DNA of 58,148 nt, counting the filler, from Jimgerdemannia flammicorona (Eukaryota): assembly GCA_003990765.1 (NCBI GenBank). It is 2 parts of 2 records of this genome, joined end to end, with 100 filler letters (N's around TTAATTAATTAA, not from the genome) between each part and the next. Parts side by side here need not be neighbours in the genome. Positions count along the whole stretch, not along the records: positions 29,126 to 58,148 come from RBNJ01000527.1; 1 more part is not named here. One strand, given 5' to 3'. Every line of letters begins with the position of its first letter. Position 1 is the first letter of the stretch. Position numbers and translations under genes: made by a program. The notes beneath the pieces were generated by a model that had not been told where the DNA came from, searched no databases, and worked only from the letters and a program-made list of their open reading frames with translations. This document shows positions 2,061-54,730 of this stretch, piece by piece.

Positions 2061-2063
2061 ACT

Positions 2064-8562: not shown

Positions 8563-10652
8563 TATAAGCACACAACCTCTAAGCCACTGAAATGAGATGT
8601 CACTCTCTGAACAAGCCACCAAAATTACATACAACAACTGAACAAATCTGGAAATCACCTACTCAATCATGAAGCTAAGTCAAACCAAAGTTATAGTGTA
8701 CAAAGTTGAGTCAACATAAAGTCATAAAACACAAGATTTATACAAACAGAATCTTACCAATCAGGACCAAATATATATATACCAAGCATCAAGATGCATC
8801 AAAACAGAGAACCAAAACAAATCAAACAAACAACTACAACTTCTGAATATATACAAATATGACCACCAAGATCTATAACTATATCTGTACTGATATTTGG
8901 AATGCCATTGTCAACTGAGCCACATCCCCTCTGCCCCTTATGAATATCCATAGCCTAGCACTCCTCTACTTTGTGGAAGCTTGATGGAATGCCCTGAACA
9001 TACTTAGTAAGACCCACTAAATCAGACAAATCTCAAGCTACTACCAGATCAGCTACCTTCTAGAAGACATGGTTGAACACTACTATGATATGGACATTAC
9101 CCAGATGTCTCAATATCAGAAACTCATTGCCGGTAAACATTGAGAACTCTTCTATGAGTACAGCACCTTTATTCCCTGTCTCTGAGTTACTACTGCCAAA
9201 ATGATCACTACTCTGTCCTATGGCCAAATTGACAACATGATACAAGAAATCAACCACAAGTATATCAAGTATGTTCAGACTATAGACAGAACCTTCCCAC
9301 ACTCTGATGACCATATCCTGCTAATGCCCCAAATAAGATATACTATGAAGAATGTCTACAATATAATCTGATTTGATGATGATGAAGCAGAAGATAATGA
9401 TCCCTCTGATGCTGACATGACCTTAAGCCAAGGATCCCTGTCAACTCTGATTACTCTGCCAATCTTGTCAATAAACTTACAATAGTTCATAACTATCTAC
9501 AAAACTTATTGGGACAATGACCACTGATATGAATACCAACCCGCATTTTACCCCCGATTACTTCAACTATAATGAAGAGACTGGAGAACACAATCTGTAC
9601 CTTCAGACAACTCTTGAGATTGAACTGACCACTCCACCATCTGAGTATGAGTAACATGAATTATAGCCACTAGCTTACTACAACCCCATGACTCATAGTG
9701 CCATAACCTATAGAAGGTATGCAGATAGTGAATCTGATAAAAGTGAAAACAATACACTACTCCTTTGCCCACCAACTCTATATCTAGCATATAAGACAGA
9801 TGATGCTATCTTGTGAGATAGTGATGAAGTTCCAATATATTACTATCTTAGTAAACAGAGAGAATTAATCCATGAACAACTCTTCCTAGATAACTACTTC
9901 ATCAAAGATGATATCATCAATAGTGATGTCATCAAAGACTACCCAGACAGCATCTAAAGCTATAGATAGCTTAGCAGTCATAGTATAGTTAGATTAGTCT
10001 TATATGATGTGACTGTGAACTGACTCAGCAGTTAGATGATCTCTTGATATATCAGATCACACTTGTATATACTACATGACTGTATTCCAACTCAGTAAGA
10101 CACTAAGTGCTACATCCATATTTAGTATAGCCTAGATAGTCCCTCACTAGTATAAATATTCCCTCCCCCAGACCTCAAAATCTCAGACTTAAAAAGACTT
10201 GAATATACAAAGAACACTTCTGAACACTTTCTTATAATATCCCTTTATACAACTACTCCTAGTATAGCAATATCATGAATAGTGAATAAATCTATTTAAT
10301 AACCCACAAACCACTCTTAAGTAAATCTGCTCCCCATTAGATCCCACTCCTAACCCTATCACGAAATTTCCTAATTGGGTATTGTCTGCAGTGATACACC
10401 AATTCAACTAAGCTGGCCTTAGTTTCTTAAGCTTTCTGAAATATGGAAAATCCTGAACATCCAGAACTAGTCTGAAAAAGGACTTTGGTTGAGATGTCTA
10501 CCCAATCTTAAAATCAATAAGTGTAGAGGATGTACTCTATATGAAATTGATCTTGACCTTAAGAAAATAGTCTTCCAGAATATCTAGAACTTCCAGAAAA
10601 CCCTTCCAGAACTACATATATAACAGTTACTCTAACAAGTAACCCTCTTATA
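8563..10652 (+). repeat. E1 3' LTR (~2090 bp) containing a decayed ORFX copy (~8859-9988)
   Basis: Full-length match to the solo LTR at 29662-31723; termini TG..CA mutated to TA..TA. Confidence 0.93.
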
Positions 10653-10807
10653 ATTATTGAGCTTTATTTAGATCTAGATTTCTAGAGATTTATATGTTGA
10701 TAGATATATAGTAGTTCAGTAGAGTTCTATTGATGTTTGATTGCTCTAAGGATAGTAGTGGTAATCTTGTTCTTAACTTGTTCTTGGTATCATTACTGAG
10801 TACTCAT
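10653..10807 (-). pseudogene. N-terminal remnant of ORFX in E2, cut by the E1 insertion
   Basis: MSTQ**YQEQVKNKITTTILRAIKHQ*NSTELLYI aligns with E4 ORFX KITSATQRAIERQWHTTKPPTI and lies just downstream of the chromodomain. Confidence 0.65.
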
Positions 10808-29125: not shown

Positions 29126-29661
29126 TTTTTTTTTTTTTTTTTTTTTTTATAGTCCCTTGGACTCCATCTTTATTACCAGTCTATGAATAAGTATACAATA
29201 TCACTACCCACTATCTGATCCCCATCGGGGGGCCCCTCCCCACCTCTTCATATATAAAGACCACTCTCTCACCAACAACTCCAACTCTCCCACCACTCTG
29301 ACCACAGATTTTCACCACCAAGTAGTGCCTCCGACCCCCCTGCAGCCCCCAACCAAGCCACCAGCCCATCAAGGTATCCTCCATAAGGTACTACCACCAT
29401 GATAACTGGCTCCCCAAGCTCTGTCGCCTCTCCTCCTCAAATACAAATAGCCAGTGACCAGCCAGCCTAACCCAAATAGCCAATGCCCAGCCTAATCCAC
29501 TCTTCCCCTACCCCTCCTATCAATCAATCCCTCAGGTCCTCCCACCTCTCCCGTACATCATCATCCCTACGCCTTACTCCCAAGTGGTCCCCAATGGCCT
29601 GCCAAAAGTCTCCCAACACCTCACACTCCCCTAGCCAATGTTCCGGCATCTGTACAAATTC

Positions 29662-31723
29662 TGTAAGCACACAACCTCCAAGCCACTGGAATTATATGTC
29701 ACCCTCTGAACAAGCCACTGAAATCACACATGACCCTGAATAAATCTGGAAGTCACCTGCTTGATCACGAAGCTGAGTCAAACTGAAGTCACAATGCACA
29801 AAGCTGAGTCAATACAAAGTCACAGAACACAAGATTTATACAAATGGAATCTTACCAATCAGGACTAAATGCATATATACTGAGCACCGAGATGTGTCGA
29901 ATCAGAGAACCAAAACAAACAACAACCACAACTTCCAAACACACAAACATGACCACTGAGATCTACAACCATATCCATGCTAACATTTGGAATGCCATTG
30001 TCAACCGAGCTACACCCCCTCTACCCCTCATGAATATCCATAGCCTAGCACCCCTCTACTTCGTGGAAGCCCAATGGAATGCCCTGAACATGCTTAGTGA
30101 GGCCCACCGAATCGGACAAATCTCAAGCTACTACCAGATCGGCCACCTCCCGGAAGACATGGTCGAACACCACTACAATACAGACATTACCCAGATGTCT
30201 CAACACCAGAAGCTCATCGCCCACAAACATCGAGAACTCTTCTACGAGTACAGTACCATCATCCCCTGCCTCCGAGTTACTACCAGCAAAATGGTTGCTA
30301 CCCTGTCCTATGGCCAAATCGATGACATGATACAAGAACTCAACCAGAAGTACCTCGAGTATGTCGAAATCACAGACAGAACCTTCTCACATCCCAATGA
30401 TCACATCCTGCAAATGCCCCAAGTTGGATACACCATAAAAGATATCTACAATATAATCCACTTTGATGAAGATGAAGCAGAAGACAATGATCTCTCCAAT
30501 GCCAACATGACCTCTAGCCAAGGATCTCTGCCAACCCTGATCACTCCGCCAACCTTACTGATAAACTTACAACAGTTCATAACTGTATACGAGACTTATT
30601 GGGACAATGACCACTGGTACAAATACTAACCTGCATTCATCCTTGATTACTTCAACTACAATGAAGAGACCGGAGAACACAACCTGTACCTTCAGATGAC
30701 CCTTGAGATTGAACCAACCACTCCACCACCTGAGTACGAGTGACATGAACCACAGCTACCAGTATACTATAACCCCACAACTCACAGTGCCATAACCTAT
30801 AGAAGGTACACAGATAGTGAATCCAATGAAAGTGAAGACAATACACCCATCCTTTGCCCACCAACACCTTATCCAGCATATGAGCCAGATGATGCTATCC
30901 TGTGAAATGGAGATGAAGTTCCAATGTACTATTACCTTAGCGAACAAGGAGAAGTAATCCGCGAACCATTATTCCTAGATGACTACTTCATCAGAGATGA
31001 TGCAATCGATGGTGATATCATCAAAGACTATCTAGCAGTGCCTAAACCCATAAATAGCCTAGCAGTTATAGTATAGTTAGATTAGCCTTGTATGACATGA
31101 CTGTGAACTGACTCAGTAGTCAGATGATCTCTTGACATGTCAGATCACACTTGTACTACGTGACTGCATTCTGACTCAACAAGGTACTTAGTGCTATATC
31201 CATATCTAGCATAGTCCAGATAGCCCCTCACTAGTATAAATACCCCCTCCCCCAGACCTCAGAATCTCAGACTTGAACACACACAAGAACATTCCTGAAT
31301 ACTTCCCCACAATATCTCTTCACACAAATACTCCTAGTATAGTAATATCATGAATAGCAAATAAACCTATTCCATAACCCACAAACTACTCTTAAGTAAA
31401 TCCGCTCCCTGTTAGGTCCCACTCCTAACCCCATCACGAAATTTCCTAATTGGGTATTGTCTGCAGTGATATACCAATTCAACTAAGCTGGTCTTAGTTT
31501 CTTGAACTTCCTGAAATATGGAAAATCCTGAATATCTAGAACTAGTCTGAAAAAGGACTTTGGTTGAGACGTCAACCCAATCTTGAAATCAATAAGCGTA
31601 GAGGACATACTCCATATGAAATTGATCTTGACTATAAGAAAACAGTCTTCTAGAACATCTAGAATATCCAGAAAACCTTTCCAGAACTACGTAATGGTTA
31701 CCCTAAAAAGTAGCCCTCTTACA
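29662..31723 (+). mobile_element. Solo LTR (2062 bp) of the E1 family
   Basis: TGTAAG...CTTACA termini; 5-bp TSD aattc/aatcc; the flanks rejoin to continuous LINE sequence; no PBS or internal region. TATAAATA at 31235-31242 and AATAAA at 31360-31365. Confidence 0.95.
29844..30629 (+). CDS. ORFX inside the solo LTR, 261 aa of unknown function; the ancestral frame probably ran to 31076 (up to ~410 aa) with an acidic, Tyr-rich tail
   Basis: Open frame. The TAA at 30627 is CAA in the E1 3' LTR, and two later TGA codons correspond to CAA/TAA (implying CGA) and TGG in the other copies. Similar to post-integrase ORFs of E4 and E5. Confidence 0.75.
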   Translation: MESYQSGLNAYILSTEMCRIREPKQTTTTTSKHTNMTTEIYNHIHANIWNAIVNRATPPLPLMNIHSLAPLYFVEAQWNALNMLSEAHRIGQISSYYQIGHLPEDMVEHHYNTDITQMSQHQKLIAHKHRELFYEYSTIIPCLRVTTSKMVATLSYGQIDDMIQELNQKYLEYVEITDRTFSHPNDHILQMPQVGYTIKDIYNIIHFDEDEAEDNDLSNANMTSSQGSLPTLITPPTLLINLQQFITVYETYWDNDHWYKY

Positions 31724-34454
31724 AATCCCCCTTCTTGTCCTACATTATAGCACTCTTTGCAGTCAAAGCAGCCCCCCTACAACAAGGTGTCCTGAGCAGA
31801 AGTTAAGCATCACATTCCTCCTCAGCACATGCCACCAGACCACCCAGTACTTCGGCAGCATCCAATTTTCACTGTAGCACTCCAGGTCCAAACCTCATAT
31901 CAGTCCTACTCTTCACCAATTCCAACTCCTTGCCAACTACTAGGCTACAGATCCTGGCCTGGTCCCTTTTGGCATTCAATGCCATTACTAATGTTGAACT
32001 CCAGTAAAGGCATGCCTCTCAGAAGAATACCATTTCATCTCCACATTGCTGGGCCCCAAGCCCTCTCCCCCTCATCCCCTCACCAGCGAATACCAATGTG
32101 GTGTACCCCCTCAGCTATCCCCTACCAGAAGCCTTTATATCTCAGTTGCACAGTATTCTGAAGCCCAACTAATGAAAGAAGATCACCAGTCAAGCCTCTT
32201 GGTGATGTCTGCCACTCCCATATCTTCTGCAGCAGGGGAACCCAGCCCCCTCCACGCAACTCCACCACCCTCCTCAGCCCCCATGCCCTCAAGCAGTGTA
32301 GTCTTTTGGGGAAGTCCACCAGCCCAAGACCACCTCTCGCCACTGGTAGGGACAAAGTCTCCCAACCAATCTGACTCCATTGCCAACCCAAATCCATCCC
32401 TTGGCCACCTTCACCAATCTCTTCACTACCCAGGCTAGGAAGTCCAGATGATAAGCCAAATACCACAGCTTCAGCAGCCAGTATATATTCGAAATTGAGA
32501 TTCTTCCTGCCAGAGAGAAGTGTCTACCCCCCCAATCCCGCAGGTCCTCCTCCCAAATTCCAATTCTCTGCTCCCACCACAGCCTGGGCAAAACAGACCC
32601 ATAGACTGACAAATAGATGCCCAAGTACCGCACTGCCTCTCTGGTGGGGACAATTGTTCCAATAACTTCGCTGCCCACCAGGCCATTGCCCAGTACTATT
32701 GTTTCACACTTGTGCCAATTCAGCTTCACCCCAGAGTTCTCCTCATACCACTCTACTGTCTTCTGGAGCTCCTCGACATCTGCAGTCACTCCCAAACCAA
32801 CCACCATATCGTCTGCAAAGGCTCCAACCTTCCAGCCAACTCCATAGATAGAGAGTTCCACAATCCTCCACTGAATTCTGTCCATTAGAGGTTCCAAGGA
32901 AAGAGCATACAAAATGGGGGACAGTGGGTCCCCCTGGGGCACTCCCCTACCCAGAGGGAATGCTACCCCTCGATGTCCATTACATATGAGCACAGCCCTA
33001 CTCCTTTCCAGTAGGCTGACCATCGCCGACCGAAATGGGACCAGAACCCCAATTCTATCTAATACTTTCATCAGCCATACTCACCACACCCAATCGTAAG
33101 CCTTCTCCTGGTCCAAGAAGACAAGATGCCCATCTAGTCCACAGGCTCGAGCACCTTCAATAATTCCATGTACCCAGGCCATACCATCTCTAATAAGCTG
33201 ACCCCCTATGAAGCCCCTCTGCTCAACACCCACAATTTGCTGGGCTACCTTCTGTAGCCTTGCGACCACCACCTTAGTCACCAACTTTCTGTCCATATCT
33301 AGCAACATTATCGGCTGCCAGTTCTTCCAATCCTCTCACCTTCTCTTGTTCTTATAAAGCAGCATCACCAGCCCAAGATCCTACTCCCCCACCCATCTCC
33401 CTGACTGCAATATAGAGTCACACAGTGCTGTCAACTCCCCCAACATACCCAGGACTCCCACCATTCGCTTCCAGAAGTCCCAGGGGAGGCCATCCTCTCC
33501 AGGCGCCATACCCGAGGCTGTTGCAGCAAGAACCTGGTGGATCTTGTCCTCCTTTACAGGTGTCACCAGGTCACCTAGTCCCTCAGCTTATAGTGGGTGC
33601 CAATCTTCTAATATTTGGTCAATGGCTGTAGCATCTGCCCCACCCTCTTCCTCACTCCACAACCCACTCTATCATGCCTTCAGTGTTCCAAGAATGTCCT
33701 GTACACCATGCACTAGTACACTATCCAAGTCGAGTACCCCTTCCCACCACTGCTATACCCTTCTCGCTCGAAGTGTCCTTGTGAGAAACTTGGAAGGCCT
33801 CTCCCCTTCCTCCAGCCCCTGCCAATGAAGCCGTACCACCAGGCCTTACACCCTAAACTCTTCCTCTTCCCGCAGCACCTATTGTAGTTCCCCAATCTCC
33901 ATCTTCACCCTTGTTATTCTCCAATCCTCTTCTCTCTCTACTACTGCCAATCTCACCCACTCCTCCAGGAGCCTAGCTAATCTAGTAGAAGCCCAATGCA
34001 CTTTCTGCCTTTACTGCTTCTCAGCCACTCTGCTAGCCTCACTCCAATACATCCTGGCCATCTCTTTCATCCTCATCCACCGAACCCCAATCGTGGCCCC
34101 TTCCTGCTACCAATTCCCCACCTCCAGCTGAATGTCTTTCACCCACTCCTCCCACCAGGACTCATCATCCAGCAAGGAGGAATTTAGGCACCAATGTCTA
34201 GGCCCATCACCACTTCCCCCAAAACACCCCTGTCCCAAGAGGCCCCAGTGATCTGACCATGGACACCATTCTACCTCTAGCACCTTCCAAATATTGCAGC
34301 CCCAACAGTCAACCATCAGAATCCAGTCAATCCTTGTCCCCAGACCTCCAGCCCAATGCGTATATACTCTCCTGTCCCCCCAGTACCCCCTACCAGCATC
34401 CACCAGTGCTCCTAGCCTTTCAACCTCCTCCCTGTGGGAGAGTTTCAGTACACC

Positions 34455-34920
34455 CTCAACAACAAAACTTAATAATCTCTCTTTCTTCTCTATCTCATCA
34501 ATTAATGGTTAAACCTTCTTTATTGTTATTACAATTAAAACCTTCTTTTTTAGTCATAATATTTTTTTTACAAAAAAAAAAAAAAAAAAAAAAAAGCAAC
34601 AGATAGTGATTCAATCTCATCTGCTACTGCCTTTTTGATTAAGAGTTCTATACTGAAAAGGTCAATCAAAATTTTCTTTATTTTTAGCCTTAACTAAAGC
34701 TTCCTTAAAAAATTTCTTTTTGTTGCATTCTCAGTCAGCAGTTTTTTTATCTAGTTCTTTTTGCATTAAATTGAGAGCAGTCTCAACAACAAAACTTAAT
34801 AATCTCTCTATTTTTTTCATCTCATCAATTAATGGTCAAACCTTCTTTATTATTATTACAATTAAAACATTCTTTTTTGGTCATAATACTTTTTTTATGA
34901 AAAAAAAAAAAAAAAAAAAG
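34455..34920 (+). repeat. Two ~140-bp direct repeats (34455-34596, 34782-34920), each ending in poly(A)
   Basis: ctcaacaacaaaacttaataatctct...tcataata(t/c)ttttttta followed by an A-run occurs twice, 327 bp apart. Confidence 0.85.
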
Positions 34921-35730: not shown

Positions 35731-35909
35731 TGAGCTTCCAAAACTCAATATTCTGTCGTGATCTGGATGGTGATTTAGTGATTTAGTCGCTAACGGTCCC
35801 TCAGTTCACTTTTCAGAATCAGCGCCGAGTCCAACGACAGGGGGCTCAGGAATCTCCACAAATTCAGGGAGCTTGATAGATTCCATGGTAGGGGGGATCT
35901 GAACCAGAG

Positions 35910-37163
35910 ATGATTTCAATACTATATTCCACTGCTCATGTGAGTCCTGAAGAACACCCCCCACCGAAAAAGAAAACTCTCCCAATTGAGCTGATATGTG
36001 AGATTATCAACCTCATTAACAAGGATATAGATATGAATCCCCTCGACGTGATCGCCAGTGCACTTGTCTCAAAGATATGGTACTCACATGGAGCTAGTTT
36101 GACAATCGCACACAGACATGTCTGTTCCAAACTCGAAATTTTCCCTCCAATTGGCAGTGTTGATATTACACGGCTTCTAAATCTCTTTATTGAATCCAAA
36201 CACGTCCGTGCAGACTTTCACAAGGACATAAGGATTGTTTCCGTCAATTTCACTAAATACGACGATAGCCCCGACAACGAAACACAGTTCAAAGAGCTGA
36301 AAGAATCTCTGCTGACAGTATTTAAATTGGAACCCCCTAATCTTAAAAAGCTTGAATTTTGTTGTCGGGGGAGCGACACACCCAAATTCCTGAGTGTCGA
36401 ATTTCCAATATTAATTAGGCAGATCAAATCCATGCCTCAAATTCACCAGATATTATTTCTCATGCTCAAAAATCCCAAAACATCTGATTTCAAAATACTT
36501 GTAGATGTGCTCTCATTTCAACTGAAAAGTTTGACATTGCATCAGTTTTGTTTGAGGGAGGAGGTTTGCGAAAGTCTTCAAAAATGCACAAAGTTAGAAT
36601 ATATCTCTTTCATTGACATGGCCATCCCATTTGTAAATTCGGTATTAAAATTTTGGCCGGATTTCCGTTACTTCTGCTATATGAACCAAACAAGCGATGA
36701 CACTGGCCTAGCCGCTGCTTTGTGGGTCTTACCTATCAAATGTATTGAGGTCAACCACATTGCAGTTCACTCAAAATCTATCAGCTTGAAGACAATTCTG
36801 TTTCTGTTGTCCTCTTATCCATTGATGACTACGTTGGAACTATCGAACAATCTAATTAACAATACCATTATAAAGACCATATTGCTCTGCAACCGAGGTC
36901 TCAAGGAGATTATATTCCAATACAACGCAATCACAGGTGACATTACGGTTGATGATGTACATGATGGTTGGCCTCAGCTTCGGGAACTATACCTGACTTA
37001 TTCCCCAGATCTTATTCCAAATTTCTTTGAGCTAGTAATCCCGAAATATGTAAGCCTTAATTACGTTACTGTCCTGGAACATTTAATTAGCAACCATTTT
37101 GTTGTGGCAATAATGTTGCAATATGGATTTGTTAAACAATTCCATCATTCCTGGACCCGATAG
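35910..37163 (+). CDS. F-box-like plus RNI-type leucine-rich repeat protein (417 aa, intronless)
   Basis: LPIELICEIINLI...ASALVSKIWY is F-box-like; repeated LxxLxL motifs (NLKKLEF, QLKSLTL, KCTKLEYISF, WPQLRELYL). Confidence 0.8.
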   Translation: MISILYSTAHVSPEEHPPPKKKTLPIELICEIINLINKDIDMNPLDVIASALVSKIWYSHGASLTIAHRHVCSKLEIFPPIGSVDITRLLNLFIESKHVRADFHKDIRIVSVNFTKYDDSPDNETQFKELKESLLTVFKLEPPNLKKLEFCCRGSDTPKFLSVEFPILIRQIKSMPQIHQILFLMLKNPKTSDFKILVDVLSFQLKSLTLHQFCLREEVCESLQKCTKLEYISFIDMAIPFVNSVLKFWPDFRYFCYMNQTSDDTGLAAALWVLPIKCIEVNHIAVHSKSISLKTILFLLSSYPLMTTLELSNNLINNTIIKTILLCNRGLKEIIFQYNAITGDITVDDVHDGWPQLRELYLTYSPDLIPNFFELVIPKYVSLNYVTVLEHLISNHFVVAIMLQYGFVKQFHHSWTR

Positions 37164-37249: not shown

Positions 37250-38330
37250 TCCGGAATATTCTAAGATTCATAAATATATTGATTGGAATATTGAAATCGC
37301 AAAATGGCGATGGACTTGCCTCCAGAAATTCTGTATAGCGTGTTCTAATACACATACCTTGCAGGGAAACTTTTTACCGATCTCGTTTCTCTTTTTCTTG
37401 TTTGTCGACAATGATTATTAATCGCACTTGAGCATTCCGATAAACTCGAAAATTCAATATTGTTGGAATCTGTAGGAGTAAACTGGTGCATGGGAATTTA
37501 AAGATTTCAATAGACCTGAATATAATCCGAGAGGAACCTTTTGGATTCTTTGCATTACCTTTGCCTGCATTACAAGGAATTGAAATTTGATACACTAATG
37601 ATAGTGGTCAACTGTTCGTTGTGGAGGATGTCACCCACATGCAATGACTATTCATCATGCTAGATTCAAAAGTGTGTCATTTTAACCTCCACATATAAGG
37701 TAGAAGATATAGACACATCTCCCTAATTATTGACTACATTTCATTCCGCCTTAGACATCTCAGCCTGGCTAATATACTTGTAGACAACTGAATGCAATAT
37801 GCACTGACAAAATGTCAAAACCTACACCATTTTGAGATAGGGATTGATGGAAACAATGACTTAGATATACTAGGTACATAGCCTTTACTATTCACAACAA
37901 GATTGTGGTATGTTCAAGTCATTACCAATAGGTTTCAAGATCTGTGGTAAGCACTACACATATGTGAATAGTATTGGAAACTGGAAGCATTGCATCTGGT
38001 GTCATATTCTGCAGCCTTAAAACAAATAATTGAAATTCAAATGGGAGACCTAATGGTTTCCAAACAGGAATGGACAATATTGAAATATTTGTATTTGGAC
38101 AATTCTATTCCTGGCTGTTGTACAACCACTTTTATTCAACATATGCTTTCACATTCCCCAAATTTGGAAATATTGTAGATGCTAAAGAGTCCCAATACTG
38201 ATGTCCTACTTCAGGAGCAGCTAGAGAGGCTAGGGTTTGAAGAGAATGAGCTTTCCTAGTATGTTTGGAGATGTTATTTTGCTTTCCATATCCCTTCATG
38301 GGATTGTCTTATCAATTCATTAACTTCATT
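37250..38330 (+). pseudogene. Decayed LRR-protein paralogue
   Basis: Broken frame with RLRHLSL, LTKCQNLHHFEI, KLEALHL, EWTILKYLYLD, SPNLEIL*ML; several stops; boundaries approximate. Confidence 0.55.
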
Positions 38331-39329
38331 TTGTTAATATGAATAATAAAAGAGACTCAATTTAAGGGGAAGTTCTGCAAAAGTTGTGCCAAGATGTAAT
38401 TTGGATTCTCAACAATATGAATATTTAAAAATATTTCCAAAATATTTATGCAAAGGATAATAATAAGATCAGCTGAGGCCCAATAGAGAAGGGAAAGAGA
38501 AATTGGAGGAAAACTTTTATCAACAAGGACACCAAATATCTATACCGCAAAGTGAAAGGTTATGGATGGGGATGCCATTTTTTAATTTTGTATAATTTGA
38601 AAAATCTGAGTATTTATATGAGAGCTTAATATGTATTATTAAATTGAATAGGCAATTTGTTATAAAATATTTGAGATTATTAAGGGGCTTTTTACAATAA
38701 TAAGTCTGAATTGTAATGATTTAATATGATACTGCAATTGACAATACACTACAAATAATTTGCTTCATTTCCTCGAAATGGTGATGTCTATATCTCTCTG
38801 CCCCTGGAAATGTGTACAATATTAGCAACAAAATTATCTGTTGACTATCACTTAATATAATATAAATACATGAAAGCCCAGTCAGTATTCAGTTAGTTGG
38901 ACTCAAATATTATAAAACTATATCCAGAAAGTAGAAATTTAATGATGTAAAATTGTTTTCACTATTCAAAGCCAAATGAAGATCAATTAGATAGCTTTGA
39001 AGTGATACTCTGTCTTCAATGGGAGGCACAGACATCAGTGATTAGATTTAAGATTTAATTCAAATATAGTAATTATATAATTACTTATAGTTATTTTTGA
39101 AAGGAATTTCATGATACCATTCTGGACTTTCACTATTTCTGGTAAGTTGATTCAATATTAGTGAAAATTCCAAGATGTTCTCTGAAACAACAACCCCTGA
39201 CTGAATGATAAGGATAAAGTTTAGGAAAAGGTTCTAGTATAAATACTTCTATAGAACATTCCCAATGACAAATAGTAGTCAATAAATTTGAACAATTTTG
39301 ACTCATAACTTTAAATAATATAGCAAACA

Positions 39330-40534
39330 AAGCTCTATTGCAACAGATTTCTCTGGAGATTGTGGGTAATATTATGCAATACTTGATGCCCGATGGCATC
39401 ATCTCTCCTTTTTCACTCGACCTCTTCACCAGCTTGCTGGTCTGCAAGGCCTAGTATCAAGAGGCAATTAGGCTTTACCCATGTAATATTACAGTCTTTC
39501 CACCTCTGAATCTTGCAAAGGTTTTTGATATTATAAGGCTTGCCACCCTAATTGTGTATTCCAAATCATTAGATTTAAATTTCTACAAATGCTTAAAGGT
39601 TATCTACATTGATCTCACTCTTATCTACTACTGCGATATCTCTCACAGTGACTTTGAGCAACTTATGAATAGTATCAAAGATATTCTTTACATAATACCT
39701 CCTAACCTCATACAAATTATTGTAAATATGGCGAATGAATTACTATATTATGACTCCTCCAATACTCATTTTGCCCTCGATCAGCTTCATAGAATAAAAG
39801 AACAATGTGATATGATTTCAAAACTGTCTGTTAAAGAATGTTGAGTAAAAGGTACCTTCTATTTTGAAGACATTCTTGCTTCTCTCTCCTGGAAGGTAAA
39901 GACTTTATCTTTATCACATATGAAGACTTTTAGAACTTTAGAACAATACACAGCCTTGGATGACCTTTATCTCTATAAGGTCAACATTGGCCACTTATAC
40001 CATATTGCGAATAAGTAGTCAAAACTACAATTGTTTACTTATGTCAATGAGGGATCTTGTAAGTTGGAGGCAGTATTTTATACAATTGGTATCAGGTATC
40101 CAAACTTGACTTTTGTCTTGATCATCTCACAGAATTCCAATACTTCCCAAGCTTCAAGTGCATTATTTGGGTTTCTGTTACACAACTGTTTAAAAATCAG
40201 AACAATAATATTTTGCAACATTAACACAATTGATGACAGTGTATTAGAAGAATTGCTGAAGCTACTCATGCTCCAATTTGTGTATTTCAGCCACTGCAAA
40301 TTTATAGGAGAGAATACTGGTGTTGAATGCAAGAAGTACATTTGGTCAAAACTTCTAAAGCTTGTAATTCAAAATTGCCCTTTACTTTCACTAATATTCA
40401 TTGACAATATTGTTACTTAATGCAAAAGACTTAATGAAGTCATGCTCCTAATCTATTTTGAGAGTGATGAATATGATGTGAGATAAACAATTTTTCATAG
40501 CAGAGAAAAAGATAGATTCAGAAAGGCAGTCTAA
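39330..40534 (+). pseudogene. F-box/LRR paralogue of 35910-37163, inactivated by in-frame stops
   Basis: One frame (includes ORFs 39554-39844 and 40031-40420): ISLEIVGNIMQYL...LLVCKA*Y...VFPPL...DIIRL...NFYKCLKVIYID aligns with LPIELICEII...LVSKIWY...IFPPI...DITRL...DFHKDIRIVSVN. Confidence 0.8.
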
Positions 40535-43235: not shown

Positions 43236-43713
43236 TGTAATGTAGCGGATGCTTACTCTTGAAAGTACGTCAGATTTCTGTATCTTGAAAACTTGACTGT
43301 TCTGACTCTCGCAGAGTCTCTTGAAGTGGCAGGGGAGGGTGGGTGAGTTCGCAGTGTATCTGCCTGCAGGCTTATTAGTTCCTTTACTATCTCTTTTGCT
43401 TTTGAACTATTTCGATCTGAGGTTTATTCACTCAAAGATACTGGGTTATTTATACAAGTTTGCTAGCTATGAGAGGGTGGCTAAGTAATAAATGAGTCAT
43501 TTGGACTTTGTCGAAACATTTGGACAATGTCTAAACACTATACTAAATCGGGGTATCTGATTTGGATAATGTCTAAAATTTAGACAATGTCTAAGAAATT
43601 AGACAATGTCGAAATCGAGAACTGCTAACTATAATGCTATACTACTTTGGGAATGGGTGTGATCAAGTGTCTATTCCCTATTTCCTTCTTCCAAATCTGG
43701 CTGTACCATCACA
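43236..43713 (-). repeat. E4 3' LTR
   Basis: TGTAA...TCACA; TATAAATA on the minus strand at 43447-43454; direct repeat of 49461-49936. Confidence 0.95.
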
Positions 43714-43750
43714 ACTTCCTCCTGAATGGATGGTCTTGTCCCTGAGGCAT

Positions 43751-44212
43751 CTATTCAAACTCCCAGGCTTCAATGGTCTGTATGGTCTTGTACTGTGCAA
43801 TTTGCTGCATGACTGTTTCCCAATGATGTCTTCTTACTTTCTCGAAGTCAGTAGGAGTTACTCCTCTCAGATGGTCTATTGCTGCTTCATCTTCTCGGAA
43901 TAACTTGTGGATCCTTTTGGCAATAGTGATCTGTGAGTAGGAGAGTTGACACTCGGCAATCCAGTCCTCTTTGGTCTTTGCTGGATCCTGATTGAGCACC
44001 TGTCCAAGCTTGAAGTACTCTTGGAATTCTGCCCGATATTGATAGGCTCTAAAGTGAGAGATCCAAGAGAGATGAGTCTGCACAATACTCTGAATATCCT
44101 CATAGTATAGCTCTATGGTCGGAGGCTTGGTGGTGTGCCATTGTCTTTCAATGGCTCTTTGGGTAGCACTAGTGATCTTGAGTGCCATCATGGTACTTTT
44201 GTTACTGGCCAT
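43751..44212 (-). CDS. E4 ORFX: intact 153-aa accessory protein of unknown function between integrase and PPT
   Basis: Uninterrupted ATG-to-stop ORF; looks soluble and helical with no signal peptide or TM segment; motif similarity to the E1, E2 and E5 ORFX. Confidence 0.8.
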   Translation of the reverse strand: MASNKSTMMALKITSATQRAIERQWHTTKPPTIELYYEDIQSIVQTHLSWISHFRAYQYRAEFQEYFKLGQVLNQDPAKTKEDWIAECQLSYSQITIAKRIHKLFREDEAAIDHLRGVTPTDFEKVRRHHWETVMQQIAQYKTIQTIEAWEFE

Positions 44213-44214
44213 GA

Positions 44215-47200
44215 TATTTCTTGAGTCAGTTTCAGTGAATGGTAGTGGGGATTATTGTGCCTGAGGGTTTTCATAGCCAAAAGGTGGTCCCTTTTATATC
44301 TTGCACAAGGTAAGGTCCTTCCCACTTGGGCTCCAGTTTTCGTGACCATGAAGCTTCTACCATGTTCCAATACACCAGGACCTTATCTCCTATCTTGATA
44401 ATCTCCAAGGGCTTGTGGATCTTTTCTGCATTCCTCCATTGTAGTGTCTGTGCCTTGGTTATGTAATCCTCAGCCTTCTTCCTGATTTGGTGTAGTCTCT
44501 ATATTTTTATGTCCATATGTTTCCATACAGCATCTCTATTGGATGATAGGGTTCCTTGAGAACATTCTTCTCCAAACAGCATTTCTCGAGTGGTAAAGTG
44601 GGTGCCTTGTGATCGGATATCCCGGAGAGCAGATAATGCTATTGGCAGATAGTGATCTCAGTTCTCATAGTTATCACAGATCTTGGCGATAACATTCTTG
44701 AGGGTTTTGTTGGTCCTTTCTACTTGTCCATTTTCTTGGGGGTGATAGGCTGTGGTCTGAATGTGCTAGATCTTGTACTTCTTGTAGAGAACCTCAAAGA
44801 GCTGGTTCACGAATTCTGTTCCTCTATCTATAGTTACTTATGTTGGGGTCTTGAACCGGCAGATGATTTCCTTGTGGAAGAAATCGGCGATTGACTGTGC
44901 ATTGGCTTCCTTGAGGGGTCCTGCTTCTATCCACTTCGTAAAAAGGTCTATGATGATAATAATGTATTGGTTACCAGTTAGGGTCAAGGGTAGAGGGCTG
45001 ATTACATCCATTGCTATATGGGCAAATGGTACTGGTTCTATGTGTGCTGATCCTGGGGCTTGATTCCATTGGTCTTGTTTCTGTTTCTGGCATTTGTCGC
45101 ATGTTTTGCTGAATTGTCTGATATCTTCCTCCATCCCTGGCCACCATATTGTTCTTCTTACCTTGTCATGTGTATTCATTCCTCCTAGGTGGCCAAGTTC
45201 ATGTACTGATTTCATCGCTTGCTCCTTCTTGTGTTCTGGTATGACCAGTAGTTTTCCTTTCTTCAGTATTTCTCTGTCGGTTTCGAATTGTTTCCATATC
45301 CTGTTGATAATCATTTGTGTCCATTCTTTCAGATGTTGGGGCATCTTTCACTGTCCCAGGTATGTGATGATTCTGTAGTAGAGCTCCTTATTTATGATTG
45401 ATTTGTTGGTTGGAGGTCTGTGAGAGAGCATCTGCATTGGAATTTGTTCTTCCAGGGCGGTGCATGATGGTTACATCATAGGCTTATAACTTCATTATCC
45501 ATCTGGCATAGATTCCCTTGGGTTGTCCAGTTATCAGTAGCTAGGTGAGAGCTGAGTGGTCCATCTGGATGGTGAAGTGTCTTCCGGCCAGATAGTAGTG
45601 GAACTTTTCCACAGCCCAGATGACTGCAAGGCATTCCAACTTGTAGGACTCATATTCTTTTTCAGTCCCTCAGGTTCCACAGCTAAGATATGCAATGACA
45701 TACTCTTTTTTGTCTTCTTTTTGAGCCAGGACTACTCCTAGTCCCTGTGCACTTGCATCCATCTGAAGGATAAATTCTTGGGTCCAATTGGGTCATCTGA
45801 GGATGGGTGCCTGAGTTAGTCTGATCTTGAGTTCGTCAAATGCTTTTTGTTGTCTGCCAGTCTACTGAAACTTGGTATCCTTCTTGTTGAGTTCATAGAT
45901 TGGACCTGTGATGTTGGAGAATCCTCTAATGAATCTGTAATAGTAGGAGGCAAGTCCCATGAAGGCTTGGGCTTCTGTAACAGTAGTGGGCCTTGGGTAT
46001 ACTGCTACTGCTTGTATTTTGAGAGGGTCTGTGTGTGTTCCATCTCGATTGATAATATAGCCAAGATAGGAGATCTCGATTTCTGCAAACTTGCACTTCT
46101 TGGGTTTGATATAAAGGTCATATTGTCTTAGTCTCTCCATTATCTGCTGTATGTACTGCAGATGTTCCTCAGGTGTCTTGCTGTAGATGATTACATCATC
46201 GATATAGACCATCATCTATCTTCCCATGTCATAGTAGAAGATTTTGTTCATCATTCGCTGAAAGCTTGCTGGTGTATTGCACATTCCGAATGGCATTCGT
46301 AGGTAGATGTAGGTTCCATCTGAAGTGATGAAGGCTGACTTTTCACTTGCCATTTCTGTGAGTCCGATTTGGTGGAATCCTGAGTATAAGTCCAGGGTGC
46401 TGTAGTACTGTGCTTCATCTCCCAGTATTATAAGGATGTCACTGATAAGTGGCAGTGGTTGACAATCCTTCTTGGTAACTGCATTGAGCTTTCTGTAGTC
46501 GACACAGAGCCTTGGGGCAAATTCTCCAGGTTTGTTTCCTTTTTTTGGGGCTAGTATGACTGGTGAAGACCAGAGGCTACTGGCTTCTTTGATGATACCA
46601 GCTTCTTCCATCTGCTTGATTTCTTCTCTGAGCCATTCTCAGGAGGCTGGCAGGACAGGTCTTGCCTTCTGGTAAATTGGTTCAGTGTCTCCAGTATCTA
46701 TCTCATAATAGTAGTGTGGGGTCTTTCCCTTGATATTCTTGAAATCCGTGGCAAGGACATCCTCGAATTTGTGGAGTATTTTCTTGAGTTCCTCCTTGAG
46801 TGGGAATTTGTCTCCAATGGTATAACTGTGCTTGCTCGTGTTTTCCTCCTTCTTATGCTTGAGTTTAGTGATCTTGGTGCTGGCAAATACTCCTCTTCCT
46901 GTGGATCCGAATCCTTTCTTTCCTCTTTTCATTTCCTCCAGATTCTTGACTTCTATGATCCTTGGCTGTATGATTGAGAAGATCAACATCTGTGCCAATT
47001 GGTCCTTCTTCTTGACTGGGAATGGAATTGTAGGATTGTGGTTCCTAGCAATGAGTAGAATTTCTCCAGTATAGTCTGAATCAATGACTCCTCCTTCGAT
47101 TGTGATTTCACTTCTAGCCAGGCTGCTTCTTGTCTTGAGAATCCTGACATGATTCTTTGAGATGGTCATCTCTAGTCCAGTTGTGAGTAGGGTGGTTGTC

Positions 47201-49348
47201 TGGGGTTCAAGTACAGTATCTTCCACTGTAGCGATGTCCATTCTGGCTGTGTTTTCTGACTTGTATTCTGGCAAGACTGTATCAGGGTGGATCTTTCGAA
47301 TCTTGACCTTGATTTCTTCTTCATCATCACTGTCCTCTAGGAGGGCTGGTGGTTCATCATCTTCCTCCTTCTCTTCTTCCCTGATCTGTTTTTCGAGAGC
47401 TTCCTGGCTTCTTTTCTGGTAGATCTTCCTGGTTCTGATGGTGCACTGGTAGCAATCATTGATATGCTCCATACAGTACATCTTGATTCCATGAGGACAG
47501 ACTCCTTGTGGGGCATAACCTTCTGTGATCTTCTTGCACCATTCTTCTTCACTCATCTATCCAACTTTCTTCTTCTTTGGGGTAGTCACTATATAAGCTT
47601 CCTCTTGCTTACTCTCTTCTTCCTCCATATCGGGCAGGACTCCTTTGTTGATGTTGATGGGAATTTGTATCTTCTGTCCCCAGTAGATGATCTGCATCTT
47701 CTGAGCATTGAGATCGATTACTGCCTTGGCTTTGTGAAGCCATTGATTGCTGATGAGGATGTCATAGTTGGTGGCATTGGTTACGATTACATCTACTGGG
47801 ATTGTTGCTCCTCCAATCTTGATGGGAACATCTTGGATCTTTCCCAGAGGTGTGGCTCTTGTGCTATCAGCTGTGATGAATACTAGCTTAGTTGCTTCTT
47901 CCACATCCCAATCTAGGCAGTCTGCTGCCTTCTTACTAAGGAGACATCCTCCTGCTCCTGTGTCAATGATGGCTTTAAAGACTTGATCCTCAATTTGGCA
48001 TATTGCATAAGCAGAGGTTTTGCGATTGTCCTCACTTTCTTCTCCTGAGTCCTCTTGAACATTATTGGCCTCAGTTATCTTCCATCCTTGTTCCTTGGTT
48101 GTTTTGGCAAGTCCAAACCTCATTTGCTGTCTGAATGTTGGGATTTCTGCGAGCTGACCAAAGGTTGCATTGACCTTTTATTGACTGAGATCCTTGAAGA
48201 TATCATACTTGAAGGTCTTGGTCTTGCGAAGCTTCTTTTCTTTTTCTCCTTCACTGGCTGGAGTGGTTCCTCAGATGATATCTTGAACTGCTTGCTCCAG
48301 CTTGATATCCTGGTCCATCTCTTCAGCTTGGCTTTCTGTGTCAGTTTCCATCTGCTTTTCCACTGGGTTCTTCTTGGGTCTTCCTGGTGGTCTCTTGTAG
48401 GGTTCTTTGCAAGCATCCTTCTTGGTGGTCTGAGCAGGATAGGCCTCCCATTCCTCTTCAAAGGTGATTGTATTGGCCTGCTCCTTGTTTTGTGTGGCAT
48501 TGCTTAGTTGAGCCTTGCATTTGGTTTCACTCATACATTCATAGGAGTAGTGGTCTTCTTCTCTGCAGCTGTAGCAGGTACCTTTCTTCTTGTCTGAGGT
48601 GGTGGTAAACTTCTGAACAGGGTGGCAATCTCTTCCTCTGATTTCCTTTACCATATCTCCCAGGTGGGCGGTCATTTCAGCAAACCTTTTGGTGAGTTCC
48701 TCCATAGGGTCACTGTTCTTTTGCTGCTCTGTAGCTTTTGACTGAGGTGTGTTTCAATTGATCATTGTGGTGGGGATCATACTGGTTGTCTCGGGTACCT
48801 CGATTCTGACTCCTGTAACTCTCTCCATTATATAGTCTCATGGATGTCTGGCTATCCAGTATCGCTGAGCATAGGTGACCTTTTGTGGCAGATCCAGAAT
48901 CACTGGTGATGAGCAGATGGCCATGGCTATTTCTAGATAGACTCCTTTCATGAAGGTTACTTCGGCTACTTGATCTCGGATAGTAGCAGCATAATCTGCA
49001 AGGATTATCTGATATTGAATTCTGGTATAGAATGTGTTTGGATTCTCACTCATTCCTTGGCACGTTGTGTTGAGCTGATCCTTCAGGGCTTGCTTGATCT
49101 CGTCTGTGTAATATGTGTTTCGGAGCCAGGTCTTCTGTGCCATCAGTATGGCATCGGCATCATTTCCTGCATGGGTTGCGGCTGTGAATGCTGCTCTGGC
49201 AGGGCCTCATAGGCTGAAGGGCATGAGGCTACTTGCTATGCTGCTGTCAGAGTCCTTACAGCAGCATACTGCTCAAAATCGTCAATGAAGGTGATGATTG
49301 ATTCATCTGAGGTATATCCATGGAATACTAGTGGTCTCATATCCATCT
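44215..49348 (-). pseudogene. gag-pol: E4 gag-pol, with nonsense lesions
   Basis: CYSCREEDHYSYEC; IIDTGAGG; ORFs 47557-48123, 46639-47556, 46216-46611 and 45862-46215 share one frame, separated by single TAG/TGA codons; YIDD; IN HHCC and core in 44838-45344; WEGPY ~44320. Confidence 0.93.
46880..47315 (-). pseudogene. dut: dUTPase domain of E4, between PR and RT
   Basis: TARMDI, TGLEMTI, TRSSLA, GGVIDSDYTGEI, DQLAQMLI, RGKKGFGSTG. Confidence 0.95.
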
Positions 49349-49460
49349 TGTCTGGGTATTGGGGCTCAGTTTGTATGGTTGTTCAGATAGTGGTAGTTGT
49401 TTATTGTTTAGCTTGAAAGTGAGGAATTCGTCTTGAATCACCAGCCAATGGGCACCAAGT

Positions 49461-49936
49461 TGTAACGTAGTGGATGCTTACTCTTGAAAGTACATCGGAT
49501 TTCTGTATCTTGAAAACTTGACCATTCTGACTCTCGCAGAGTCTCTTGAAGTTGTAGGAGAGGGTGGGTGAGTTCGAAGTGTATCTGCCTGCAGGCTTAC
49601 TAGTTACTTTGCTATCTCTTTGCTTTGAACTATTTCGATCTAAGGTTTATTCACTCAAAGATACTGGGTTATTTATACAAGTTTGCTAGCTATGAGAGGG
49701 TGGCTAAGTAATAAATGAGTTATTTGGACTTTGTCGAAACATTTGGACAATATCTAAATGCTATACTAAATTGAGGTATTCAATTTGGATAATGTCTAAA
49801 ATTTAGATAATGTCTAAGGATTTAGATAATGTCAAAATCGAGGACTGCTATCTATAAGGCTATACTACTTTGGGACTGGGTGCGATCAAGTATCTATTCC
49901 CTATTTCCTTCTTCCAAATTTGGCTGTACCATCATA
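49461..49936 (-). repeat. E4 5' LTR
   Basis: Direct repeat of 43236-43713, adjacent to the PBS. Confidence 0.95.
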
Positions 49937-53100: not shown

Positions 53101-53433
53101 GGGTAACGTTTTCTTTCTTTCTGTGGCAAGAGAAAATTCTTTAACTCAAACTTCTGAGCGATCCATTGCTCTAGGTTGTTATCTTGTTCTCAGAATTTAT
53201 CCGGTCTCTTGGAGGCAGTGGTTTCTTTGTAATCCTTTTTACTTTTAAACACAAGCTGACTGAGGTTTATTCACTCTAAGAATATGGGTTATTTATACAA
53301 GTTTGCTAGCTATGGGGGAGGGGGCGCGACTAAGGCTAAGGTATACTATATTGTGGTGAACTTTGCTATGCTATTAGCTTGCATAATACGAGGTGCAGGC
53401 TATTGTTTACTACAGATTGGGTTATAGGGGATA

Positions 53434-53637
53434 GCAACGCTGGATTCGGACCTGCTGACAAAATGCTGAAAACGGTGGTACTGAGTAGCAACACTGGATT
53501 CAGATGGGCTGACATGATACGATGATTGTTGCTAGAAGTGGTTGTGGAGGGTGGCAACGCTGGATTCGGACCTGCTGACAAAATGCTAAAAACGGTGGTA
53601 CTGGGTAGCAATGCTGGAAATGGACTTGCTGACAAAA
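53434..53637. repeat. ~80-bp direct repeat with a 120-bp period in the E5 U3 region
   Basis: gcaacgctggattcggacctgctgacaaaatgct(g/a)aaaacggtggtactg(a/g)gtagcaa at 53434 and 53554. Confidence 0.9.
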
Positions 53638-53743: not shown

Positions 53744-54730
53744 TCAAAGGGGGGAAGCACCGGCCAAGAGGTGAGGGGGGTAGAAAAGTGGCCAGTCATC
53801 TTCAACAACATTCTCCAACCCTTGAACAGCTTGAATGTGGACAGAGGACTGATAGACTCTCTGTTGCTCCTCTTCTTCTTCTGAAGACTTGTCAGTTTCA
53901 GTGTCAGAGTGGGTTTCTTCAGGGGCAGGGCCTTGGAGTTCTTGGGCCTCCTCTTCAAAGACAGGAACTTCTTGGGCTTCTTCTTGATTCGGTTCCCAAA
54001 TGATGAGGTGTGAATTGTGGCTGACTGGGTGGTGGGTAGTTGGGGTAGCTCTAATGGGTACCTCTATAGTGATGGGCGGTCCTTCAAATATCTCCATAAG
54101 ACTCATTAGGTGACCTTGATGGTTGTCTCGGAGTGGGGTGGTGTGGAAACCTGGCTGAGTAGGTTCGGTTTGTTGGCTTCCTACAGCGATACAGTTGCTG
54201 CCAATAGCATTGGCTACTTCAGATTCTATCCAGTCAGCATCTTCGGTTGATAGGCAGGAGAGGCTACCAGCTGTTACACCTTGCAAGTATGCTATAGCCC
54301 AGGGAATATAGTGGAAGATTTGGTGGACACAGAGGGCTCTCTTGATTAGCCGGCTGGTGGTTAACATTTCGGCAATGAGGTCTTCCTGGTCGTCTTCTTG
54401 AGGCTCATTGCGAAGGCAGTGTCCGATTTCATAGTCATGCCAGAGGGTCATTCATTTGGTAGTATCTTTGAGTTGTTGGGTTATTATATACCAGTAGTTG
54501 ATGAAGTGTCCAAGGTCCTCAGTGTAGAAGTTCAAGTATTCGGAAGTATCTGGGTGCCAGATGGCCTTCTTGATAGCTTCAAAGATCAGGGTCTTTGAGC
54601 CAGGCAAAGGGGTAGAGTGGCAGGAGGTCTGGTTGGTTCAGCGAATGGGAGGCATTGTGTGGTGGGTACTTGGTTCTTTGGTGCCGATCCTTGAGGTGGA
54701 GTATGGTTCCTTAAATAACGTGGTCTTCAT
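53744..54730 (-). pseudogene. E5 ORFX (~328 codons with two in-frame TGA; 235-aa open part 53744-54451) with an acidic tail
   Basis: In-frame ATG at 54730 and 54655; IFEAIKKAIWH...FYTED...YEIGHCL...ALCVHQIF...AIAYLQGVT aligns with E4 ORFX. Confidence 0.75.

Follow-up and report, generated by a model that had tools for sequence, protein, structure and literature searches.

A helical protein encoded 3´ of pol in Ty3/Gypsy elements of Jimgerdemannia flammicorona: a probable accessory gene and a possible dimeric regulator of its own long terminal repeat

The stretch of Jimgerdemannia flammicorona DNA analysed here (58,148 nt, filler included; two records of assembly GCA_003990765.1 joined end to end, with positions 29,126 to 58,148 from RBNJ01000527.1; hereafter the window) carries several Ty3/Gypsy long terminal repeat (LTR) retrotransposons, among them those designated E1, E2, E4 and E5. 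LTR retrotransposons are usually described as gag-pol machines; to our knowledge, extra genes are rare outside env-like open reading frames (ORFs), and almost none has a known role. Downstream of integrase in E4 lies an additional ORF, here called ORFX, on the minus strand at 43751 to 44212. An initial annotation of the window placed it in an unannotated protein family that occupies the env position of four Ty3/Gypsy lineages. The comparisons described below indicate that ORFX is probably a working accessory gene of Ty3/Gypsy elements. The E4 element consists of the following features:

43751..44212, minus strand: E4 ORFX, an intact ORF of 153 codons plus stop
43714..43724, minus strand: E4 polypurine tract CAGGAGGAAGT, which abuts the 3´ LTR
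about 43236..43713, minus strand: E4 3´ LTR, a direct repeat of the 5´ LTR
44214..49206, minus strand: E4 gag-protease (PR)-dUTPase-reverse transcriptase (RT)-RNase H-integrase (IN) region, decayed
about 49461..49936, minus strand: E4 5´ LTR, about 92% identical to the E4 3´ LTR

The minus strand is open from stop to stop between 44251 and 43751 (166 codons). The first ATG at 44212 and the stop codon at 43751-43753 delimit a 153-aa protein that starts with MASNKST and ends with WEFE, which bears out the initial annotation's description of the E4 ORF as intact; the peptides that it quoted from E4, E5 and E1 are likewise present in the sequence. A C-terminal piece of integrase (44271-44498) precedes ORFX, and 26 nt separate the ORFX stop from the polypurine tract CAGGAGGAAGT. 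At the other end of the element, a primer-binding-like sequence, TTGGTGCCCATTGG (49445-49458), lies 2 nt inside of the 5´ LTR. The Pfam domains between 44841 and 48177 follow the order protease, dUTPase, RT, RNase H, integrase zinc finger and integrase core. However, pol is broken into many pieces, with 21 in-frame stops in the ~1,670 codons that can be aligned to an intact relative (L001, below), and the E4 copy in the window is a dead element. At this stop rate the chance of finding no stop in 153 codons is ~0.15 by our arithmetic, so the openness of E4 ORFX alone is uninformative.

The intact relative was recovered in a locus search seeded by the E4-family alignment, in which one of 305 pattern matches in metagenome contigs was confirmed, as against none of 167 in viral contigs. 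L001 is a metagenome contig of 6479 bp that contains a nearly intact sister element of E4. Its 1281-codon ORF (gag-PR-dUTPase-RT-RNaseH) encodes a zinc knuckle, protease, dUTPase, RT and RNase H, its integrase occupies one frame with a single stop, and its ORFX is full-length, starting in a different frame at an ATG (5795) within the last 44 nt of integrase (end at 5838). The same arrangement of ORFX stop, polypurine tract and LTR appears at both ends of L001. Positions 1-42 of the contig hold the tail of a second ORFX copy and a polypurine tract ahead of the 5´ LTR, and the two LTRs (3´ part 6256-6479) differ in their U3 repeat arrays; elements in tandem, recombination or chimeric assembly of the contig could each account for this end structure. 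A dUTPase lies between protease and RT both in E4 (46642-47556, minus strand; Pfam E 2.6e-23) and in L001 (residues 648-775 of the 774-4619 ORF; Pfam E 2.7e-28), a layout that passages of PMC2864245 describe for some fungal Gypsy families.

The ratio of nonsynonymous to synonymous differences (pN/pS) was determined for the E4 and E1 types. The alignment of the E4 and L001 copies of ORFX is gap-free for 153 codons and 67% identical at the nucleotide level, with identities of 0.745, 0.83 and 0.431 at codon positions 1, 2 and 3, respectively. In this frame pN is 0.211 and pS is 0.815 (saturated), giving a pN/pS of 0.26, and the dN/dS check proposed in the initial annotation thus does not return a value near 1. 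In the two remaining frames the ratio rises to 1.0 and 1.6, with 6-9 stops per frame. For the region from Gag to RNase H, the same two elements yield a pN of 0.173 and a pS of 0.702 (ratio 0.25, our division), and omega is 0.17 and 0.09 for the integrase pieces. Purifying selection on ORFX is therefore estimated to be about as strong as that on gag-pol. We regard the low, frame-specific pN/pS as decisive for ORFX being a real gene of the element lineage, and a real and selected gene is what these alignments make very likely.

Membership of the family was evaluated separately for each of the other elements. The E5 homologue is a long form:

53744..54655, minus strand: E5 ORFX homologue with an acidic tail, interrupted by two in-frame TGA stops

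The proper start of this ORF is at 54655 (MPPIR), which corrects the span of 53744-54730 given initially. At the 3´ end it differs from the intact relative P0009 (325 aa), one of three database relatives of E5 ORFX found among 46 candidates. E4 and E5 ORFX match in BLASTP with an E of 2e-5 over 108 residues, their Smith-Waterman score is 76 compared with 30.2 ± 5.3 for shuffled sequences (z 8.6; 0 of 1000 shuffles reach the score), and the hhalign comparison of the E4 and E5 families gives an E of 3.3e-5 and a probability of 72%. E4 ORFX has five database relatives at E ≤ 0.01 among 16 candidates; they are 65-81% identical to it and are unnamed or labelled 'hypothetical protein'. A HMMER search of 1,835,955,588 representative proteins with an E4+E5 profile returned 11 proteins at E ≤ 0.001, all of them unnamed metagenome proteins of 40-342 aa and none fused to pol. 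P0017, P0018, P0019, P0021 and P0022 are distant members among the profile matches, and all four members of the P0021 cluster are exactly 154 aa long.

The E1 ORF is not significantly similar to E4 or E5 in pairwise comparisons (BLASTP E 0.11 and 1.2), its Smith-Waterman scores are at chance (reached by 132 and 162 of 1000 shuffles, z ~1), and hhalign with the small families is also not significant (E 0.09 and 0.2). A 16-row family profile that contains no E1 sequence, however, matches the E1 alignment in hhalign with a probability of 88% and an E of 2.9e-6 over 140 collinear columns. When this comparison was re-run, the score was 41.8, while 100 column shuffles gave a mean of 12.4 (sd 2.2, maximum 17.7), 100 block shuffles reached at most 21.0 and the reversed alignment scored 10.0. 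In the six-frame translation of the window (116 kaa, thousand amino acids), the profile hidden Markov model (HMM) finds E5, E4 (score 178) and all three E1 copies, at 29901-30353 (independent E-value, i-E, 7e-7), 8844-9257 (2e-4) and 454-699 (3e-4), and nothing else better than an i-E of 0.58. The E1 ORF is in all likelihood a remote member of the family, as judged from these profile matches. Three of the four proposed lineages are thereby retained, E4 and E5 by direct alignment and E1 by profile only; the shuffled controls are exceeded by the E4-E5 pair and by the E1 profile comparison but not by E1 in pairwise alignment. The fourth, E2, is dropped:

10727..10789, minus strand: E2 'remnant', a 20-codon piece, unsupported as a member

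This piece, proposed as a remnant at 10653-10807, is missed by the HMM, and an equally good match to E4 is given by 3.3% of 400 random segments of 290 nt. Two other weak matches were rejected as noise, namely a tblastn match of E4 at 17092-17229 (E 0.058), which the profile misses, and the HMM match at 23259-23441 (i-E 0.58), which lies within a Gag-like ORF. The Gypsy element at 18.6-24.7 kb contains no ORFX detectable with the profile HMM.

In E1 the gene is located within the LTR, of which the window holds three copies:

29662..31723, plus strand: solo E1 LTR (copy 3), 2.06 kb, with TGTAAG...CTTACA ends and flanks AATTC/AATCC
29844..30629, plus strand: open part of the E1 ORFX homologue in copy 3, 261 codons from the ATG
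8563..10652, plus strand: 3´ LTR of the full-length E1 chromovirus (copy 2), which starts right after the polypurine tract AAGAAGGGGAGAG
8710-9954, plus strand: decayed ORFX in copy 2, 8 stops in 229 codons
426..2060, plus strand: 5´ LTR of the full-length E1 element (copy 1), with an unalignable 5´ part and a CTTACA end
430-1394, plus strand: decayed ORFX in copy 1, 5 stops in 183 codons

The polypurine tract of copy 2, AAGAAGGGGAGAG, is located downstream of the integrase and chromodomain of the E1 element, and copy 1 is followed by a primer-binding-like sequence, TTGGTAGCAGTGG, and then by gag-pol. Copy 3 splits another retroelement whose halves are displaced by approximately the length of the LTR, with near-identical 5-nt flanks; its ends, its flanks and the interrupted host element identify it as a solo LTR. 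The E1 ORFX starts at an ATG ~180 nt into the LTR, in U3 by position, and because the polypurine tract lies upstream of it, the whole gene falls within the U3 of a 2-kb LTR. The initial placement of the family downstream of integrase in the env position consequently holds for E4 but not for E1, where the copy cited is the solo LTR. The family thus has two layouts, one with the gene before the polypurine tract (E4 and L001) and one with the gene after it, within the LTR (E1). A sense-strand ORF 3´ of pol and inside the element is found in E4, in L001, where it overlaps integrase by 44 nt, and in both LTRs of E1; ORFX lies in the sense orientation relative to pol in E4, E5, E1 and L001 and occupies the 3´ end of genomic RNA.

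Only the solo-LTR copy of the E1 ORFX is open, and the stops in the other two are mostly TGA. All ORFX copies of the window are parts of dead elements. The homology of copy 3 to P0012, which is 62% identical to E1 ORFX and whose frame is open for 247 aa, continues in frame to 31031, beyond one stop; by this comparison an intact E1-type ORF reaches at least 31031 (~396 codons). Between copy 3 and copy 2, pN/pS is 0.32 in the ORFX frame, compared with 0.56 and 1.09 in the other two. The E1 estimate relies on this pair only, because positions 1-425 of the window cannot be aligned to the other LTR copies and comparisons with copy 1 are unreliable. An accessory third ORF (ORF3) under purifying selection is accordingly indicated in E1 as well as in E4 versus L001.

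Several other observations concern the same LTR copies. Nine of the 13 in-frame stops in copies 1 and 2 (430-978 and 8850-9536) are TGA, and their decay is transition-dominated; the E4 element of the window differs from 318 related contigs of run X1 by 511 transitions and 61 transversions. These contigs are diverged copies that cover the element in full and show no joints. The transition-rich decay of the E1 LTRs and E4 suggests cytosine deamination, either methylation-linked or resembling repeat-induced point mutation. Just 5´ of the E1 ORFX ATG, a 31-nt unit is repeated about twice (29766-29832; also 8660-8720) with TGAGTCA in each unit, which we take to be an AP-1/Gcn4 site; the repeat could be an internal promoter element of the LTR-borne ORF. 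The element interrupted by the solo LTR (~29169-33080) matches 16691-16891 and 17894-18193 with its two halves, the offset difference being approximately the LTR length; its RT is represented by minus-strand pieces at 32292-33080 and 18096-18590. Just upstream of the solo LTR are two stretches of N, each 44 long (29026-29069 and 29082-29125).

The hosts of ORFX are diverse. E1 carries a chromodomain (Chromo, 28.1 bits against a cutoff of 25.1), whereas E4, its relative L001 and E5 do not, and the proposal that both chromodomain and non-chromodomain lineages are hosts stands for these elements, E2 having to be removed as a host. The primer-binding sites of E1 and E4 differ, as had been reported. 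The identity of the RT-RNase H region to that of L001 is 74% for E4, 46% for E5, 39% for the ORFX-less element at 18.6-24.7 kb, 31-37% for E1 and 32% for E2. ORFX identity to the E4 type decreases in the same lineage order, from 66% (L001) through ~25% (E5) to ~17% (E1). This common order fits an old vertical descent of ORFX with losses in some lineages, and capture between lineages is an alternative that the identities leave room for.

The initial annotation also described the ORFX product as helical and as distinct from Env, and both points are supported. An AlphaFold2 model computed from a 20-row alignment has a mean predicted local distance difference test score (pLDDT) of 87.4 and a predicted template-modelling score of 0.79, and consists of helices only (residues 2-23, 40-73, 81-88, 92-105, 109-114, 120-124 and 128-151); with 10 rows the pLDDT is 50.9 and the model is unusable. 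The shared part of the family is an all-helical domain of ~140 residues in which L73, A98 and F105 are conserved in at least 90% of sequences, and helix 92-105 bears a recurrent basic patch, A-(K/R)-(R/K)-x-H. Transmembrane segments usually exceed a threshold of ~1.6 on the Kyte-Doolittle scale. No signal-like or transmembrane segment was found in any of 10 members, for which the maximum 19-residue mean is 0.17-1.07. The first 150 residues have a charge of -3 to +1 in nine of the 10 proteins tabulated, while four long forms (P0009, P0017, P0018 and E1 copy 3) have acidic tails with a net charge of -14 to -29.

Modelling of two ORFX copies gives a score of 0.40, compared with 0.00 for the best of three controls. 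Among solved structures from microbes, 21 of 30 homodimers and 0 of 23 monomers attain the mark used for dimers; the eukaryotic counts are 17 of 29 and 0 of 30, respectively. The runs share at least 73% of their contacts, with a partner pLDDT of at least 63, and the predicted interface is symmetric and is formed by helix 40-72 together with residues 84-94. These models lend support to a predicted ORFX homodimer.

Searches against known families and folds produced no assignment. No consistent match was obtained for 20 members in Pfam and PHROGs at E ≤ 10, stray matches being limited to HTH_Tnp_Mu_2 in two of 20 (best E 0.031) and RAMP in two of 20. A sequence-profile search of the PDB retrieved only Plexin-D1 (E 0.095) and no ParB chain at E ≤ 10. 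The family is therefore unannotated, as had been stated, in that no described family was matched in Pfam, PHROGs or the PDB sequences. A full-text search of the published literature, to which the structure lists of ~150 fungal Gypsy families in the supplements of PMC2864245 did not belong, contained no description of it. In the ESM Atlas, E4 ORFX leads to unnamed clusters and a mixture of families, and the E5-type N-terminal domain has no usable match. Foldseek returned no match of the ORFX model at E ≤ 0.001 in the PDB or BFVD. The comparison covered 48,161 chains, and among the 50 matches listed just two are restricted to residues 61-152; both are helix-turn-helix domains in complex with DNA, with scores in the noise range. 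The resemblance to DUF3102 that had been suggested finds no sequence support, as none of 20 members matches a DUF3102 or ParB family profile at E ≤ 10 in Pfam; what is left of it is a weak fold echo, a DUF3102 protein at rank 37 in BFVD (TMq 0.42, probability 0.38), which is in the noise range for helical models.

The LTRs that accompany ORFX contain repeated dyads. Five dyad repeats, GACATTGTCYAAAT, with a GACA-T-TGTC core occur in the E4 LTR (43499-43610 in the 3´ LTR), and the core has 19 matches where 1.5 are expected. The corresponding array of E5 is:

53432..53617, minus strand: presumed U3 of the E5 3´ LTR, with CCAGYRTTGCYA present four times

The LTR boundary of E5 is not placed, the 5´ LTR lying beyond the window and the alignment to E4 and L001 being ambiguous. 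In L001 the 5´ LTR contains four repeats built around TGCCA-AA-TGGCA, and 4.5 repeats of an 18-nt array are present in the 3´ LTR. In E4, E5 and L001 alike, the U3 repeats are located upstream of a conserved TATA/AATAAA core, TATAAATA...AATAAA.

On the basis of the fold prediction and these repeats, we propose a model in which ORFX would dimerise via its long central helix (residues 40-73), so that the dimer may present two helix-turn-helix-like units, each comprising helix 81-88, a turn and helix 92-105 with its A-K/R-R/K-x-H patch. The dimer would bind the lineage-specific dyad repeats in the U3 of its own element, and this binding would regulate transcription from the LTR, with the acidic tail of the long forms possibly acting as an activation region. 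The role of transactivator or silencing suppressor that the initial annotation put forward is likewise a conjecture. To the statement as a whole, that ORFX is a selected accessory gene and a dimeric LTR-binding regulator, we assign a probability of about 0.35, which leaves it a tentative model. Its most specific form is unlikely, although worth stating: ORFX would be a dimeric helix-turn-helix transcription factor acting on its own fast-evolving U3 dyads in an autoregulatory, Tas-like circuit in env-less Ty3/Gypsy elements, the recognition helix and the LTR sites would co-evolve by lineage, and a shift of the polypurine tract would have moved the gene into the LTR in one chromovirus lineage, so that solo LTRs carry the gene.

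Several results weigh against a regulator of this kind. ORFX matches no helix-turn-helix or other family in sequence, the domain is near neutral rather than basic, and an acidic tail is missing from the 153-aa E4 type. Folding of the dimer model made no use of the alignment and reached a pLDDT of ~64. The U3 motifs were defined after inspection of the same sequences, might just as well be sites for host factors and are not even the same in the two L001 LTRs. On the gene side, the openness of the E4 frame has the probability of ~0.15 given above.

The rival that survives best holds that ORFX acts through protein-protein contacts, as an adaptor or antagonist of host factors (silencing, chromatin or restriction) or as a helper in nuclear entry or integration-site choice, with the acidic tail as a mimic or bait. 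The evidence for selection and for the family serves this explanation equally well. It is also in keeping with the near-neutral domain, with tails that are long, acidic and poorly conserved, and with the lack of a sequence link to DNA-binding families, and the faster divergence of ORFX than of RT (66% versus 74% identity between E4 and L001; ~25% versus 46% between E4 and E5) fits an interface in conflict with the host. The conserved basic patch on helix 92-105 and the dyad repeats in U3 speak for DNA binding instead, as does the finding that fold echoes of a sub-domain come solely from helix-turn-helix domains bound to DNA. We consider action through protein contacts rather doubtful, yet a serious competitor of the LTR-binding dimer.

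ORFX might alternatively be a particle-associated or RNA-binding helper of Gag in packaging or reverse transcription. An all-helical protein with predicted self-association, always encoded by a separate ORF and adjoining the polypurine tract and U3, would suit such a role. An origin as a Gag duplicate was rejected, however, as the family profile shows no similarity to the Gag of L001 (400 aa; hhalign E 0.66, probability 0.08%). A weak match of the family (E 0.0033, probability 9.8%) to a Gag-like ORF in a different element sits on a degenerate zinc-knuckle-like YYQIGH string. Moreover, the domain is not basic, and related Gypsy elements in the window, such as that at 18.6-24.7 kb, manage without ORFX. 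A role beside Gag is hence improbable.

A further possibility is that the E4/E5 family is real and confined to one non-chromodomain clade, while the ORF in the E1 LTR is unrelated or no gene and its profile match an artefact of composition or helix periodicity. Chance-level pairwise comparisons, the small-family hhalign values (E 0.09 and 0.2), the many stops in two of the three E1 copies and an E1 alignment of four rows, two of them decayed, would all be expected on this account. It has difficulty with the 140 collinear columns matched by the E1-free 16-row profile at E 2.9e-6, as 0 of 200 shuffles come within 20 score units, and with an HMM that recovers each of the three E1 copies and has no match of similar quality in the rest of the 116 kaa. 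Inclusion of E1 and other distant rows also lifted the AlphaFold pLDDT from 51 to 87, the in-frame pN/pS is 0.32 and a 62%-identical relative is open for 247 aa. An artefact in E1 is thus as poorly favoured as a Gag helper.

That ORFX is no functional gene, being open by chance or through overlapping non-coding signals, is very improbable: the dead host element of the window copy and the ~0.15 chance of openness would allow it, but the frame-specific third-position pattern with a pN/pS of 0.26 over 153 codons at 67% nucleotide identity, the relatives that stay open (149-342 aa) down to ~20% identity and the confident AlphaFold fold all contradict it.

Elsewhere in the window, two C-rich stretches (24720-28550 and 31796-34600) have a GC skew of -0.3 to -0.5 and share repeats that are 72-80% identical; the long ORFs within them have no Pfam match. 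A 423-codon ORF at 35892-37163 on the plus strand and neighbouring ORFs at 37900-40420 lie in AT-rich DNA and match no Pfam family; they look like host genes of a leucine-rich-repeat-like type.

ORFX is common to Gypsy lineages whose RTs are only 31-46% identical, and its two layouts show a way for an accessory gene to be incorporated into an LTR, a situation also known from some retroviruses. Should ORFX regulate its own LTR, a simple retrotransposon would possess a retrovirus-style circuit, the arrays of dyad repeats in U3 would be accounted for, and a means would be gained of studying the ways in which such elements evade or modulate silencing by the host. With the family profile, 'hypothetical proteins' from repeat-rich eukaryotic genomes and from soil metagenomes can be annotated.

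The retroviruses offer the closest parallel to the E1 layout. Retroviral accessory genes lie in U3 or extend into it, as do sag of mouse mammary tumour virus, tas/bel of foamy viruses and nef of HIV, and foamy-virus Tas is a DNA-binding transactivator of its own LTR with an acidic activation region. The E1-type ORFX similarly lies wholly in the U3 of a long LTR, 3´ of pol, and the architecture proposed for the long forms would, by analogy, resemble that of Tas. ORFX has neither a sequence relation nor a demonstrated fold relation to these genes, and its hosts are Ty3/Gypsy elements that lack env. The ORFX model contains a helix, a 3-residue turn and a second helix (residues 81-105) that weakly recall the helix-turn-helix domains of ParB/VirB/KorB and DUF3102, and ORFX is predicted to dimerise, but there is no sequence match, the scores are in the noise range, and ORFX is eukaryotic and borne by a retroelement.

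Among retrotransposons, the ORF3 types of bdelloid-rotifer LTR elements, which are common to diverse retroelements (Rodriguez, Kenefick & Arkhipova 2017, PMC5408684), are similar to ORFX in several respects described in the passages of that study: they follow pol as third ORFs and need not be Env, one and the same type can be found in unrelated LTR lineages, and some host lineages carry a dUTPase too. As presented there, their products can be recognised as enzymes or glycoproteins (GDSL esterase, DEDDy exonuclease, paramyxovirus-like F), whereas ORFX matches no family and is a small helical domain located inside the LTR in one lineage. The Figure 3 legend of PMC2864245 shows fungal Gypsy elements and chromoviruses with an 'add. 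ORF' whose function is unknown; it is an extra ORF like ORFX, and the likeness is one of description, as the passages concerned give neither the sequence nor the position nor the family of that ORF. The Boty-like Gypsy elements of Botrytis cinerea likewise contain an additional unannotated gene, brtn (Zhao et al. 2011, cited in PMC8365987); it is antisense by the cited title, whereas ORFX lies on the sense strand, and the two are compared by description only. Extra ORFs in LTR retrotransposons are thus already known as a kind, and what ORFX adds to them is a new protein family, newly described at the level of its predicted fold, and an unusual shift into the LTR.

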